Source of the DNA: Mogibacterium sp.
GTDB taxonomy: Bacteria > Bacillota > Clostridia > Peptostreptococcales > Anaerovoracaceae
DNA: 64,000 bases
Strand: one strand, 5' to 3'
Assembly (NCBI RefSeq): GCF_016775335.1
Contig: NZ_JAEUGJ010000010.1
This document shows, piece after piece, positions 47,600 through 53,149 of the stretch (positions are counted from its first letter, which is position 1; the number at the start of each line of letters is the position of its first letter). A program made the translations under genes and the position numbers. Under the pieces are notes generated by a model. That model was given only the letters and a program-made list of their open reading frames with translations. It searched no databases and had not been told where the DNA came from.

Positions 47600-47791
47600 C
47601 CTCCACGAGCCCGGCCTCCGCGCCGTCGGTTTTATATACTGTTTTGTACAGAATATTATGCTGTATTTAATTAGATACTTTAAATATATTCATAAAATAT
47701 AATAAAAGGTAAAGCTACATGGTATAATGTCATAAAAATAACGTGCACCCGAACATGGAAAACTGTGCAAACCAACAAAGGAGGAAAGGGT

Positions 47792-48265
47792 ATGCTAGAC
47801 GCACAATATTATGAGAAGACAGATGAAATCATCGCCAACCATACAAGAGAAGAACGTTCACTGATTCCGATTATTCAGGATATTCAGGAAGAATATCGGT
47901 ATCTTCCGCCGGAGCTGCTGACGTATGTGGCGAAGGAGATTGGAATTACCGAAGCCAAGGCATTCAGTGTGGCCAGCTTCTACGAGAATTTTTCCTTTGA
48001 GCCAAAAGGAAAATACGTAATCAAGGTCTGTGACGGGACGGCCTGTCACGTGCGGAAGTCCATTCCGATTCTGAATGCGCTGAACAAAGAATTGGGACTG
48101 AACGAGCATAAACATACCTCGGACGATATGCTTTTCACCGTAGAAACGGTTTCCTGCCTGGGCGCCTGCGGACTGGCGCCGGCGATTACCGTGAACGATG
48201 AAGTGCACCCGAAGATGTCGCCGGAGAAAGCAATGGATCTGCTGGAAGAACTGAGAGGTGAATAG
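47792..48265 (+). CDS. hydC: [FeFe]-hydrogenase gamma subunit (NuoE-like, 2Fe-2S)
   Basis: VCDGTACH, SCLGACGLAP; AGGAGG RBS; start ATG 47792. Confidence 0.9.
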   Translation: MLDAQYYEKTDEIIANHTREERSLIPIIQDIQEEYRYLPPELLTYVAKEIGITEAKAFSVASFYENFSFEPKGKYVIKVCDGTACHVRKSIPILNALNKELGLNEHKHTSDDMLFTVETVSCLGACGLAPAITVNDEVHPKMSPEKAMDLLEELRGE

Positions 48266-50156
48266 GATGAAGCTTGAAAACAGAACGGAACTGAAAGAGT
48301 ATCGGGCGGAATGTCAGAAGAAGCAAAGCGCCGACTGCAGGGTGCTGGTGTGCGGCGGAACCGGATGCCTGGCCAGCGGATCCGATAAAATCTACGAAAA
48401 GCTCAAGGAGCTGACCAAAGAAAATGCCGGTGTCGAAGTAAAAATCGGGGAAGAGATTGCCCATGCCGGTACCGAGTACGTGCATACAACGGTGATGAAG
48501 AGCGGTTGCCACGGTTTCTGCGAAATGGGCCCGTTGGTACGAATCGAGCCGTACAATTATTTATACATCAAAGTAAAGCTGGAAGACTGTGAAGAAATCT
48601 ACCGGGAGACCGTTCTGGGAGGAAGACCGATTGAGCGCCTGATGTACAAGATGGACGGCGTAACCTATCCGTCCCAGGAAGAGATTCCGTTCTATGCAAA
48701 GCAGACGAGACTGGTGCTGAAGCATTGCGGACACATCGATGCGGAGCATATCGAAGGCGCTTTGGCCGTGGGCGGATACAAAGGAATCGAAAAAGCTATT
48801 TTTGAAATGACGCCGGAAGCGGTCATTCAGTGCATTTACGATTCCAAGTTGCGGGGCCGCGGCGGTGCAGGCTTCCAGACCGGAAAGAAATGGAAGCAGG
48901 TGGCATCCCAGGAAGAAAAGATTCGCTACGTGGTATGTAACGGTGATGAAGGCGATCCGGGTGCATTTATGGATCGAAGCATCATGGAAGGCGACCCGCA
49001 CCGCATGATCGAAGGCATGATGATTGCGGCATACGCGGTTCAGGCACAGGAAGGATATATCTACGTGCGTGCAGAATATCCGCTGGCCATCGAAAGACTG
49101 AAGACCGCCATTCAACAGGCAGAGGCGATTGGGCTGCTGGGCGACAATATTCTGGGAACGGATTTCAGCTTCCACCTCCACATCAATCGAGGCGCCGGTG
49201 CTTTCGTATGCGGCGAAGGAAGTGCTCTGACCGCATCCATTGAAGGTCGGAGAGGCATGCCGAGGGTCAAGCCGCCGCGTACCGTTGCACAGGGACTTTG
49301 GGCAAAACCGACGGTCCTGAACAACGTGGAAACCTACGCCAATGTACCGATGATTTTACTGAACGGTGCGGATTGGTACAGGGGAATCGGTACGCCGGAC
49401 AGCCCAGGCACCAAGGCGTTTGCCCTGACCGGCAACGTAAGAAACACGGGCCTCATCGAAGTTCCGATGGGAATTACGCTGCGGGAAGTCATTTACGACA
49501 TTGGCGGCGGATTGCAGAACGATAAAGAATTCAAGGCCGTACAGATTGGCGGACCGTCCGGCGGCTGTCTGACAAAGGATCAGCTGGACAGCAAAATGGA
49601 TTTCGATTCCCTGGCAAAGATCGGTGCCATGATCGGATCCGGCGGCCTTGTTATCATGGACGAGGACACCTGCATGGTAGAGGTTGCACGATTCTTCATG
49701 AGCTTCACTCAAAGAGAGAGCTGCGGAAAGTGCGTGCCGTGCCGAGAAGGAACGAAGCGAATGCTGGAAATCCTGGAACGAATTGTTGCGGGAAAAGGAA
49801 AGCCGTCGGATATGGACGAACTCCGGGAGCTGGCGGACATGATTGAATGCACCGCCCTTTGCGGACTGGGCAAGAGCGCACCGAAGCCGGTCATCAGTAC
49901 CATGAATGCATTTGAAGACGAGTATCTGGAACACATCAACGAGAAAAAATGCAGAACGGGAATCTGCTCCAACTTGCGGAGATTCCGAATTGATCCGGAG
50001 AAATGCAAGGGATGCTCGAAGTGCGCACGGAACTGTCCGGCAGGCGCAATTGAAGGCGAGCTGAAATCGCCGTATCACATCAATCAGGAAAAATGTATCA
50101 AGTGCGGTGCTTGTATGGAACAATGTCCGTTCAAGGCCATTCATATCGAAAAGTAG
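48258..50156 (+). CDS. hydB: [FeFe]-hydrogenase beta subunit (NuoF-like, FMN/NADH binding)
   Basis: LRGRGGAGF, CNGDEGDPGAFMDR, GAGAFVCGE, ESCGKCVPCREG, two C-terminal 4Fe-4S motifs. Start may be ATG 48267. Confidence 0.92.
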   Translation: MNRMKLENRTELKEYRAECQKKQSADCRVLVCGGTGCLASGSDKIYEKLKELTKENAGVEVKIGEEIAHAGTEYVHTTVMKSGCHGFCEMGPLVRIEPYNYLYIKVKLEDCEEIYRETVLGGRPIERLMYKMDGVTYPSQEEIPFYAKQTRLVLKHCGHIDAEHIEGALAVGGYKGIEKAIFEMTPEAVIQCIYDSKLRGRGGAGFQTGKKWKQVASQEEKIRYVVCNGDEGDPGAFMDRSIMEGDPHRMIEGMMIAAYAVQAQEGYIYVRAEYPLAIERLKTAIQQAEAIGLLGDNILGTDFSFHLHINRGAGAFVCGEGSALTASIEGRRGMPRVKPPRTVAQGLWAKPTVLNNVETYANVPMILLNGADWYRGIGTPDSPGTKAFALTGNVRNTGLIEVPMGITLREVIYDIGGGLQNDKEFKAVQIGGPSGGCLTKDQLDSKMDFDSLAKIGAMIGSGGLVIMDEDTCMVEVARFFMSFTQRESCGKCVPCREGTKRMLEILERIVAGKGKPSDMDELRELADMIECTALCGLGKSAPKPVISTMNAFEDEYLEHINEKKCRTGICSNLRRFRIDPEKCKGCSKCARNCPAGAIEGELKSPYHINQEKCIKCGACMEQCPFKAIHIEK

Positions 50157-50167
50157 GAGGGACGATT

Positions 50168-51868
50168 ATGGGATATATGACAATTGATGGGAGAACGGTA
50201 GAATTTACCGATGAGCCGAATGTGCTCGCCGTCATTCGCAAGGCAGGCATCGATATACCAACACTTTGCTATCATTCGGAGCTGTCCGTGTACGGCGCCT
50301 GTCGTCTGTGCACGGTGGAAAATGAGCGAGGAAAGACCTTCGCCTCCTGCTCCGAGCCGCCGAGAGACGGAATGATCGTCTACACCAATACGCCGCGCCT
50401 GATGAAGTATCGGAAGCTCATCCTGGAGCTTTTGCTGGCAGCGCATTGCAGAGACTGTACCACCTGCATCAAGAGCGGCGAGTGTCAGCTGCAGGCACTG
50501 GCGCACCGCATGGGCGTGGAGACCATTCGATTTGAAAATACCAAAGAGCAGCATCCGTTGGATTTCAGTTCTCCGTCCATCGTGCGGGATCCGAATAAGT
50601 GCATTCTCTGCGGAGACTGCGTCCGCATGTGCGACAACGTGCAGTCAGTGAACGCCATCGACTTTGCGTATCGGGGCACCCGGGCGCTGGTAACACCTGC
50701 TTTTAACAAGAAAATTGCTGAGACAGACTGCGTCAACTGCGGACAGTGCCGCGTGGTATGTCCCACCGGCGCCATCAGTATTCACACGAATACGGACACC
50801 GTTTGGGATCTTCTGGCGGATAAAAACACGAAGGTCGTGGCGCAGATTGCTCCGGCAGTACGCGTTGCGGTAGGAGATCGGTTCGGTCTGCCAAAGGGTG
50901 AAAACGTGATGGGCAAACTGGTAAACGTGCTGCACCGGCTGGGCTTCGATGAAGTATATGATACCTCCTACGGTGCAGACCTGACGGTCATCGAGGAATC
51001 CGAAGAGCTGTTGAACCGTCTGGAAGCCGGCGAGAACCTTCCGCTGTTCACCTCCTGCTGTCCGGCATGGGTGAAATTCTGCGAGGAACGTTATCCGGAC
51101 CTGGCAAAGAATCTGTCCACTTGCCGCTCGCCGCAGCAGATGTTCGGCGCGGTAGTGCGGGAATACTATAAGGATCCGGAGAAGAGCGGCGGCAAGAGAA
51201 TCGTTTCGGTTTCCATCATGCCGTGTACCGCTAAAAAAGAAGAAATTCTGAGACCGGAGTCCACCACCAACGGAAAACAGGATATCGATTATGTTCTGAC
51301 CACAACGGAACTGATCGGCATGATTCGAAAAGCCGGAATCCGTTTCGAAGATTTGGAGATTGAGGCAACGGATATGCCGTTCGGCATCGGATCCGGAGCC
51401 GGCGTCATCTTCGGTGTTACCGGCGGTGTGACGGAAGCGGTTCTGAGACGCCTCCGGGAAGGCCACAACCGTGCGGATATGGAGAAGATTAAATTCAGCG
51501 GCGTTCGCGGCGAAGACGGACTCAAAGAAGTGGCGTTCGATTACAACGGACGCACCATCCGTGCCGCGGTTGTAAACGGTCTGGGCAATGCGAACAGCCT
51601 GATGAAGAGAATTCAGAGCGGCGAAGTGCAGTACGATTTCGTGGAAGTCATGGCCTGCCGACGAGGATGCATCATGGGCGGCGGACAGCCGGTACCGGTG
51701 GATCCGGAAAGCCGAATTGCGAGAAGCAAGGGCATCTACAACACGGACATCAACACGCAGATCAAGAAGTCCAATGAGAACCCGTTGGTTCAGTCGCTGT
51801 ACGACGGCCTGCTGAAGGGAAAGACCCACGAACTGCTGCACCGAAATTTTGAAGCGGCAGAGAAATAA
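50168..51868 (+). CDS. hydA: [FeFe]-hydrogenase catalytic subunit (group A, trimeric electron-bifurcating type)
   Basis: H-cluster motifs TSCCPAW, MPCTAKKEE, EVMACRRGCIMGGGQP; N-terminal Fe-S motifs; AGGAGG RBS before ATG 50168. Confidence 0.93.
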   Translation: MGYMTIDGRTVEFTDEPNVLAVIRKAGIDIPTLCYHSELSVYGACRLCTVENERGKTFASCSEPPRDGMIVYTNTPRLMKYRKLILELLLAAHCRDCTTCIKSGECQLQALAHRMGVETIRFENTKEQHPLDFSSPSIVRDPNKCILCGDCVRMCDNVQSVNAIDFAYRGTRALVTPAFNKKIAETDCVNCGQCRVVCPTGAISIHTNTDTVWDLLADKNTKVVAQIAPAVRVAVGDRFGLPKGENVMGKLVNVLHRLGFDEVYDTSYGADLTVIEESEELLNRLEAGENLPLFTSCCPAWVKFCEERYPDLAKNLSTCRSPQQMFGAVVREYYKDPEKSGGKRIVSVSIMPCTAKKEEILRPESTTNGKQDIDYVLTTTELIGMIRKAGIRFEDLEIEATDMPFGIGSGAGVIFGVTGGVTEAVLRRLREGHNRADMEKIKFSGVRGEDGLKEVAFDYNGRTIRAAVVNGLGNANSLMKRIQSGEVQYDFVEVMACRRGCIMGGGQPVPVDPESRIARSKGIYNTDINTQIKKSNENPLVQSLYDGLLKGKTHELLHRNFEAAEK

Positions 51869-51942: not shown

Positions 51943-52731
51943 TCATTTCATAATATCCACAATCGCTTGAATCAGCGTGCCGCGAAGGCCGTTTGTCTCC
52001 AGCGTGGCCACGCCCTTGATGGTGGCACCGCCTGGGGAGCAGACGCCGTCCTTCAGTGCGGCCGGATGGGAGCCGGTCTCCATGGCATAGGCCGCAGAAC
52101 CCTCCATCATCTTTTCTACCAGACGGTATGCGGTGGCCCGAGGCATTCCGTGGAGAACCGCTGCATCGGCCAAAGACTCGATGACGATGTCCATAAAGGC
52201 CGGCGTGCTTCCCGCCACGATGCCGCCCAGGTCCAGCAGCTCCGGCGGCAGCAGTTCAATCAGGGCAATACTGCCGAACAGTGCGCTGAAAATCTCCAGC
52301 TGTTCTTCCGTCAGAGAATGATCGTTGGAACATACCAGGACGCCCTTGCCTACCTCAATCGGTGTGTTCGGCACCACGCAGATTACGTGACAGCCCTCCG
52401 GAAGAAGTTCCATATAGCGATGATGGGAAACCCCGTAGGCGATGGAAACGATGATTTTGCCCGGGAGCAGATCCCGCACTTCCCGGAGAACGTTCTCCAC
52501 CTGCGTCGGAATGACGCCCACGATCACGATGTCGGAATTCTTCACCACCTCAGCGGTAGTCCCCGGGTGGATGCCCAACGCCGCGCAGTTGATCTCCAGC
52601 CGCGCCCGGTTCCGCGCGCTGGCGGTAATCCGGGTCGGATCGATTCCGCCATAGGAAATAAAACCCTTCACGATGGCAGAGGACATGCTGCCCAGTCCGA
52701 TGATACCGATTCTTGCGTTTTCTGTGCTCAT
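51943..52731 (-). CDS. proC: Pyrroline-5-carboxylate reductase
   Basis: IGIIGLGSM, VPNTP, GSTPAF, LKDGVCSPGGATIKG; start ATG 52731. Confidence 0.93.
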   Translation of the reverse strand: MSTENARIGIIGLGSMSSAIVKGFISYGGIDPTRITASARNRARLEINCAALGIHPGTTAEVVKNSDIVIVGVIPTQVENVLREVRDLLPGKIIVSIAYGVSHHRYMELLPEGCHVICVVPNTPIEVGKGVLVCSNDHSLTEEQLEIFSALFGSIALIELLPPELLDLGGIVAGSTPAFMDIVIESLADAAVLHGMPRATAYRLVEKMMEGSAAYAMETGSHPAALKDGVCSPGGATIKGVATLETNGLRGTLIQAIVDIMK

Positions 52732-52772
52732 AACGATAATTCCTTTCCATAAAAACAATTTCGCGGAAGTCT

Positions 52773-53096
52773 TCAGTGTCCGACTTCCTCGTCGTCTTTG
52801 GCGGGGAGCAGTCCATCCACCTCAAAACAAGTGAGCCAGGGATGCTCTTCGTACCGCACCGTAATCTCCCCGTCGATGATGACTCCCTCCGCCGGATAAT
52901 ATACATTTCCCAGCTCACTGGGTTCCCAGGTGTATCCCTGTGCCAGCAGGGACTCCTTCTCATCATCGGTAAACCTTACCGATATCTCCAATCGTGGAGG
53001 CGCACATCAGCTGGTGATGGTTTCCACCGAAAGGAGAACGTGGCGAAAGCCCCGCTTGTTCATATATGCAATTGTATTTTCATTTAAATGTGCCAT
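52773..53096 (-). CDS. Putative small selenoprotein, 107 aa, in-frame UGA at codon 30 (TS-U-CAPP)
   Basis: ATG 53096 with GGAGGT RBS is in frame with the 72-aa track ORF starting at TTG 52991; the only interruption is TGA at 53009-53007, next to a Cys codon and followed by a SECIS-like hairpin. Confidence 0.7.
52986..52999 (-). promoter_or_regulatory. Candidate bacterial SECIS hairpin
   Basis: CUCCA-CGAU-UGGAG starting 8 nt after the UGA; G at the second loop position. Confidence 0.55.
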
Positions 53097-53119
53097 GATA
53101 TACCTCCGTGTATGAAGGG

Positions 53120-53149
53120 ATTGTAACACAAAGGAAAAAGACGGTGCAA
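53120..53149 (-). promoter_or_regulatory. sigma-A type promoter for the selenoprotein-proC unit
   Basis: TTGCAC, 18 nt, TACAAT with an extended -10 TG. Confidence 0.6.

Follow-up and report, generated by a model that had tools for sequence, protein, structure and literature searches.

On the minus strand of the window, the 64,000-nucleotide stretch of Mogibacterium sp. DNA analysed here, positions 52773..53096 hold a predicted selenoprotein gene for a protein of 107 amino acids. Translation yields a single 107-codon frame that starts with ATG at 53096, ends with TGA at 52775-52773 and contains one internal TGA at codon 30 (53007..53009), followed directly by a TGT codon for Cys31 (53004..53006). 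This is the readthrough frame that the sequence-only reading had described, with the UGA beside a cysteine codon; a plain ORF caller reports just a 72-aa ORF from TTG 52991. The ribosome-binding site GGAGGT, also part of that description, is present 5 nt upstream of the ATG (53102..53107), and of the 66 homologues for which a start was found, 53 have an RBS-like word ahead of the ATG. The promoter proposed for the gene (53120..53149) held up in part. Its TTGCAC at 53149 and TACAAT at 53125 are separated by an 18-nt spacer and form a weak -35 box and an extended -10 box (TG-n-TACAAT), but a promoter consensus scan called no site at TTGCAC/TACAAT because the -35 box matches at only three of six positions. 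In a subgroup of related loci (L083, L088, L090, and L106), 6-9 nt separate the end of the extended -10 box from the ATG and contain no RBS, which suggests leaderless transcripts in this subgroup. The closest named protein belongs to Mogibacterium kristiansenii (98% across 101 columns). At a distance of 41 nt from the stop codon, proC begins with ATG at 52731 (51943..52731, minus strand; TIGR00112 above cut-off). A scan of the minus strand between the two genes found no terminator-like site, and the terminator-free 41-nt gap is as originally claimed. Three plus-strand ORFs at 47765-51868, which by eye resemble an electron-bifurcating [FeFe]-hydrogenase operon, converge on proC.

TGA terminates proC and 157 of the 958 ORFs of at least 350 aa in the host genome. 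The code is therefore standard, as the earlier reading had assumed, and code reassignment was rejected. The host genome has two further in-frame TGAs, located at Trp-like positions, which served as an internal control, and both are private. The first lies in an HD-domain-like gene (named by eye; plus strand, G000:C2:110162-110743, equal to L150:363-944), the relatives of which have open frames at 96-97% identity; judged from these relatives, the TGA is a private nonsense change or an assembly error. The second is in a zinc alcohol-dehydrogenase-like gene (also named by eye; minus strand, G000:C25:4899-5735, equal to L151:400-1236), of which a 97% identical open copy exists in genome G155.

The TGA at codon 30 behaves differently from these private codons. 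A search of 201 genomes of the host's family returned 19 matches, distributed over 18 genomes, and each match carries one TGA that aligns to query position 30 or 31. For a GTDB-wide DNA scan, the flanking residues including Cys31 were fixed and codon 30 was left free, a pattern that is blind to members with altered flanks. It matched 71 stretches. Against the clade profile, 68 of them scored above 40 bits, and TGA stands at codon 30 in every one; the three rows that were dropped are unrelated and carry other codons at this position. The carriers are Lachnospiraceae (Dorea, Extibacter, Merdimonas, Faecalicatena, Bariatricus, Claveliimonas, and Sporofaciens) and Anaerovoracaceae (Mogibacterium, Baileyella, Mobilibacterium, and Crickella), with a few further records under other or loose labels. 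Most of the 68 proteins, that of the window included, are stand-alone and 95-135 aa long. The 29 codons 5' of the UGA are stop-free and conserved, as seen at residues outside the search pattern (Y11 in 67/68, N5 in 64/68, and L22 in 61/68). The check that had been proposed for this locus, namely the identity of codon 30 in homologues together with the conservation of its flanks, thus gave TGA throughout and conservation on both sides. Cysteine homologues do exist (GSCCGG in P0054, EGCCS in P0076, MCQSC in the selA-negative genome G556, and others in G165, G034, and G130), as do distant relatives with CxxU or CU motifs. All of these Cys forms fall outside the clade, which we name after its U-C-A-P-P motif, and the GTDB scan found none among its 68 homologues.

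Many database proteins carry tryptophan at the UGA site. Together with the other host TGAs at Trp-like positions, this would favour a reading of the UGA as a genuine stop, as a nonsense mutation or as a Trp codon, and of the locus as a pseudogene or two small ORFs. In the two clusters in which full-length Trp forms are listed, however, these lie on contigs shorter than 2 kb, while the truncated 29-aa form of one of these clusters occurs on 219 contigs of up to 1.2 Mb. None of the 17 GTDB matches to a Cys/Trp peptide pattern was a relative, and the pattern's sole metagenome match was discarded as a chance match. We infer that the Trp readthroughs in the databases are code-4 gene calls. Phenylalanine or arginine stands at the site in two database proteins (P0003 and P0049), the former on a single 567-base contig. 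The other host TGAs are private, and TGA is a common stop. This alternative is contradicted by the conserved sequence that flanks the UGA on either side, by the SECIS-type hairpin and, as described below, by the association with selA. We rejected a nonsense pseudogene, as the UGA is kept in 68 of 68 homologues with conserved flanks on both sides, and consider a non-selenoprotein explanation of the UGA hardly tenable.

The wider family shows further variation at the motif. Locus L061 (G183:C88:7500-11150) is a tandem array of six paralogues, the last two of which contain TGA (C-U-S and R-U-C), while the other four have lost Cys and Sec at the motif. Two or three Sec paralogues occur in G073 (L026/L031), G459, G501, G546, G604, and G496, for example, a U-C-A-P-P copy and a CxxU copy in the same genome. 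In the selA-negative genomes of loci L055, L058, and L168-L171, the motif reads H-S-D/E-I/L-E/D-V-T-E, with neither Sec nor a Cys pair; by their sequences, these homologues constitute a subfamily that appears to have retained the fold and dropped the redox pair.

The host genome is equipped for selenocysteine insertion. Genes for selA, selB, and a Sec-type, TGA-containing selD were detected above their cut-offs on contig C12, which also carries tRNA-Sec, so that all of the machinery (selA, selB, selC, and selD) for which the sequence-only reading had advised a search is present. A phage portal-fragment-like ORF (named by eye; 89058-89699) lies between tRNA-Sec and selA (G000:C12:88050-91900) and is possibly the remnant of an element integrated at selC. 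Contig C3 encodes a D-proline reductase operon, the prdB gene of which contains a TGA. SelD and PrdB are the two selenoproteins confirmed in the host genome besides the window gene. A de novo SECIS scan of the genome passed 66 of 1417 TGA sites through one filter and 153 through another, and missed prdB. The scan is unspecific, and our listing of the host selenoproteome is therefore incomplete. The earlier reading had named three findings that would speak against it: a non-Cys residue at codon 30 of homologues, a lack of conservation in the upstream 29 codons, and a genome devoid of Sec machinery. None of the three was observed.

The occurrence of the UGA also follows the Sec trait. A broader profile of 20 rows matches 35 of the 201 family genomes, 29 of them with TGA at the motif; selA is present in 28 of these 29 genomes versus 62 of 201 overall, and the exception, G137, is an 86% complete genome in which no selA was found. 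Among 261 genomes of Lachnospiraceae, selA occurs in 14 of 14 TGA-bearing genomes versus 41 overall, and the five genomes with only non-TGA homologues, one of which has a CxxC Cys form, all lack selA. The tie between UGA and selA is thereby seen in the sequences of two families, in which related genomes are not independent. In G058 and G161 (loci L068 and L069, one genus), a G-U-G-G relative directly follows selD-selA-selB (G058:C49 and G161:C2), and genes that by eye resemble iscS and iscU lie beyond selD on the other strand.

Two hairpins follow the UGA. Hairpin 1 (CUCCA-CGAU-UGGAG; 52986..52999, minus strand) spans +8 to +21 and has a CUCC/GGAG stem and a variable loop. Hairpin 2 (52964..52984, minus strand) spans +23 to +43 and has a stem of 8-9 bp and an R-G-N-U-U loop. 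The bacterial SECIS consensus, as given in PMC13188914, comprises a stem of 4-16 bp, a loop of 3-9 nt with a G as its first or second nucleotide, a distance of 16-37 nt from the UGA and an energy of -7.5 kcal/mol or lower. Hairpin 1, with its loop 12 nt from the UGA and an energy of -4.5 kcal/mol, lies outside this consensus in spacing and energy. Hairpin 2, with a loop 30-31 nt from the UGA and -8.2 kcal/mol, agrees with it in loop, stem, position of the G, spacing and energy. In an alignment of 19 sequences, 97.7% of the cells of hairpin 2 are paired, compensatory changes occur at five of seven pairs, and RNAalifold predicted this helix only.

Both hairpins are under selection in the U-C-A-P-P clade. 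Across 63 distinct clade sequences, 482 of 504 pairs of hairpin 2 are kept compared to approximately 342 after synonymous randomisation, and a G stands within the first two loop positions in all 63. For hairpin 1, 287 of 315 pairs are kept in the clade compared to 163-172 after synonymous randomisation, and its four core pairs are intact in 63 of 63 sequences. As a consequence, two codons are fixed, CCT for Pro33 and GAG for Glu37, which downstream account for 18% of Pro and 46% of Glu codons, respectively. The loop of hairpin 1 varies freely, with an early G in 27 of 63 sequences. In 32 more distant TGA relatives, 188 of 256 pairs of hairpin 2 are kept versus approximately 140 (two out-of-register rows counted), whereas hairpin 1 is patchy, with 78 of 128 versus approximately 62 pairs and a randomised maximum of 76-78. 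From the fit to the consensus and the conservation pattern of both elements, we conclude that hairpin 2 is likely the SelB site, i.e. the SECIS, and that hairpin 1 is probably an accessory element. The hairpin on which attention had originally been drawn is hairpin 1: it is present and selected in the clade, but probably not the SelB-binding SECIS, and we rejected it as the main SECIS on account of its loop distance, its energy and its inconstant early G. The prdB hairpin of the host genome lacks an early loop G, and the early-G rule is therefore not absolute in this genome. The folding energy of the 73-nt region is unremarkable (z = -1.0), and the case for the hairpins consequently rests on conservation. 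The window gene departs from the consensus arrangement in that a second conserved hairpin occupies the spacer between UGA and SECIS; selD and prdB of the host have single hairpins with loops at approximately +17 and +22, respectively.

The conserved UGA, the Sec machinery, the hairpin and the tie to selA bear out the selenoprotein reading, and the T-S-U-C sequence of the clade its vicinal Sec-Cys motif. Taking these sequence data together, the gene almost certainly encodes a selenoprotein with Sec at position 30.

To place the protein structurally, an AlphaFold2 model was computed from a 20-row alignment with Cys in place of Sec. The model has a pLDDT of 90.4 and puts residues 28-34, Cys31 among them, in a loop between strands 19-27 and 35-43. 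The top ten Foldseek rows are IscA, SufA, and their relatives (best E = 1.2e-4, 1s98). VIA-align gave Z = 8.0 with an rmsd of 2.6 over 85 residues to IscA 1r94, and Z = 4.6-8.0 for seven IscA/SufA-type chains versus 2.3 for a single unrelated row. The protein is thus predicted to adopt the HesB/IscA fold with T-S-U-C-A-P-P at a hairpin tip. At the sequence level, the window protein has no match in searches of Pfam and NCBIfam, including NF041239, TIGR01911, and PF01521, and a PDB sequence search returned chance matches alone when run with the profile and none at all when run with a Cys relative. The connection runs through bridging relatives with CxxU, CU or GU motifs, which match NF041239 over the whole model (best 31.3 bits, E = 1.6e-7, cut-off 40). 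Within the U-C-A-P-P clade, 3 of 17 members match this model (best E = 0.032), and of 15 additional members, two score 14.8-16.3 bits. These sequence matches argue for shared ancestry with the CC/Se motif family NF041239. The kinship with HesB-like and CC/Se proteins that had been surmised was supported in this sense, by the predicted fold and by the matches of the bridging relatives. A tree without an outgroup was built from 68 rows, made up of the window protein, alternate members of the clade, the TGA relatives, and a pair of Cys proteins. In it, the U-C-A-P-P proteins lie on one side of a long branch (support 100/99, length 1.63), as a divergent, monophyletic group related to the CC/Se motif family.

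The protein nevertheless differs from each of its known relatives. Members of NF041239 (Moor_selen_rel) resemble it in length (~95-100 aa) and in having Sec near residue 30, but the window protein has no match to this model, and the best clade member reaches 16.3 bits against the cut-off of 40. Their motif is given as CxxU in Table 1 of PMC13188914, in contrast to T-S-U-C-A-P-P, and CxxU was found only in more distant relatives outside the clade. The HesB-like selenoproteins (TIGR01911, and the IscA/HesB family NF038090) share the predicted fold and the Sec region; their motif, however, is UxGP, and at a TIGR01911 cut-off of 66.35 bits neither the window protein nor the clade matches. One distant relative matches TIGR01911 and NF038090 weakly (E = 0.04-0.07). 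According to PMC11097638, the HesB-like protein was experimentally identified as a selenoprotein in Methanococcus, and its function is not clear even there. An inventory of 119 selenoprotein families (PMC13188914) lists, in its Table 1, CC/Se as CxxU, HesB-like as UxGP, and no HesB-fold U-C entry. Our search of the literature found no paper on the U-C-A-P-P clade; its members could be filed in BSepDB or RefSeq under CC/Se by BLAST. Judged from sequence and predicted structure, the window protein appears to work like the CC/Se-HesB group and to descend from it, while matching neither NF041239 nor TIGR01911 nor the domain of the A-type carriers.

The A-type Fe-S carriers IscA and SufA (PF01521) share the fold of the window protein at 8-17% identity, which raises the alternative that the protein, like IscA, carries a metal or an Fe-S cluster, for which U30 and C31 (and Cys90) of one or two subunits would serve as ligands. 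A-type carriers have a C-terminal CxC ligand motif, and this motif is absent from the window protein. Cys90, which might contribute a ligand, is present in 31 of 66 homologues and hence missing in about half of the clade. Carriers of this type are defined by a complete PF01521 domain in PMC2682760, and the window protein has no Pfam match at all; one Cys relative scores 19.7 bits against the PF01521 cut-off of 26.3, over residues 1-71. In the host genome (93% complete), no match to NF041239 or PF01521 was found, and none to grdA, for which the control matched nowhere either. That no standard A-type carrier was found in the host speaks for such a function, as does the G-U-G-G relative in G058 and G161, which has the iscS/iscU-like genes nearby, with the sel genes in between. 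Among the neighbours of the 68 loci, however, no conserved isc or suf link was seen. We rank this explanation first among the rivals, ahead of the sensor-domain, ProC-partner and pseudogene readings, and regard it as rather unlikely.

The second rival is a selenium or redox sensor, in which Sec insertion or the state of the U-C pair controls an attached or separate DNA-binding domain. In Mogibacterium pumilum, M. diversum, Baileyella, and Mobilibacterium, a tail of ~70 aa is fused downstream of the UGA and would be made only upon Sec insertion. It has weak winged-helix matches with E = 0.017-0.042, below the Pfam cut-offs. Most of the 68 members, however, stand alone, as does the window protein, and other members have a different tail. 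The winged-helix-like C-terminal tail follows the Sec domain in L075, L108, L127, L140, and L142, and in L072, L074, L077, L083, L091, and L106 the tail is helical, bears the motif G-F-x-E-N-x-W and matches DUF7674 weakly. A sensor function of the family is, in our estimation, improbable.

A third rival, in line with the co-transcription that the sequence-only reading had suggested, is that the protein is a functional partner of ProC. The 41-nt gap with no terminator-like site would fit this idea, and one metatranscriptome contig (X3) covers 52673-53025 across the junction of the two genes, although the contig shows neither a strand nor a single transcript. In public RNA runs, only minor portions of the stretch are covered, by contigs that carry no strand information, and the runs are silent on expression level and co-transcription. 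Yet proC adjoins the gene in only 3 of the 68 loci, all of them close kin of the host genome. Co-transcription is plausible here, but the adjacency is lineage-specific and outside the conserved unit; a conserved proC operon was rejected on these counts, and a partnership with ProC seems to us very improbable. Among the neighbours of the 68 loci, no family occurs at more than eight, apart from a broad ABC-ATPase cluster.

A link to proline or Stickland metabolism had been proposed on the basis of the proC adjacency, which does not sustain it; some support comes instead from co-occurrence with PrdB. The window gene lies outside the prd operon in the host genome. PrdB was detected in 57 of the 68 GTDB carriers (40/49 and 17/19), and many of the 11 carriers with no detected PrdB are incomplete assemblies. 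In the host's own family, PrdB occurs in 13 of 201 genomes overall, and in 10 of 11 clade genomes versus 2 of 51 other selA-positive genomes, carriers that may represent one lineage. In Lachnospiraceae, 9 of 10 carriers versus 16 of 31 other selA-positive genomes have PrdB (Fisher two-sided p = 0.059, with related genomes not independent and the centre genome included). The weaker contrast in this family arises because PrdB is a main Sec user there. The co-distribution in these genome sequences is suggestive of a link between the gene and PrdB, confounded by kinship and by the Sec trait.

The selenoprotein reading can be extended to a mechanism. SelB would bind hairpin 2 (+23 to +43) and direct the insertion of Sec at the UGA. 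Sec30 and Cys31 would be exposed at the tip of the beta-hairpin, held by the Ala-Pro-Pro segment. In keeping with general selenoprotein chemistry, the pair may cycle between a selenol/thiol and a vicinal selenenylsulfide, or carry a persulfide or perselenide in transit. Enzymes of these anaerobes that depend on selenium would be the most likely partners, with D-proline reductase (PrdB) as the foremost candidate. The best overall explanation, which from sequence and model we hold to be probable, is a HesB/IscA-fold selenoprotein of 107 aa that acts as a small selenol-thiol redox protein through Sec30-Cys31. Redox or chalcogen-transfer chemistry at the U-C pair is about equally probable. A specific service to proline reductase is a possibility that we put forward as tentative and doubtful. 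A broader combination of proposals appears unlikely when taken as a whole: that the uncatalogued, Sec-only IscA-fold clade supplies a missing accessory component for the D-proline reductase of Stickland fermenters in the gut (Dorea, Extibacter, Merdimonas, Faecalicatena, and Mogibacterium), its reversed Sec-Cys pair reactivating PrdB or supplying selenium; that it is additionally a selenium-gated sensor where fused to the winged helix; and that the two hairpins form a tandem SECIS, in which hairpin 1 compacts the long spacer or adjusts readthrough.

HesB-fold selenoproteins as such are already known. What seems to be new, as far as the sequences indicate, is a Sec-only U-C-A-P-P clade with a tandem-hairpin recoding signal in gut anaerobes. 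Protein databases hold the gene as fragments of 29 aa and 50-75 aa or as Trp readthroughs. The NCBIfam and Pfam models searched do not capture the clade, although at least 68 GTDB species representatives carry it, cultured gut commensals among them. Within the host genome, the protein would be the third selenoprotein, in addition to SelD and PrdB. The tandem hairpin offers a clean test case for the distance from the UGA at which the SelB of Firmicutes can act. Because the distribution of the clade points to proline reductase, the protein may also provide a handle on the role of HesB-fold selenoproteins, with one candidate partner in culturable hosts.
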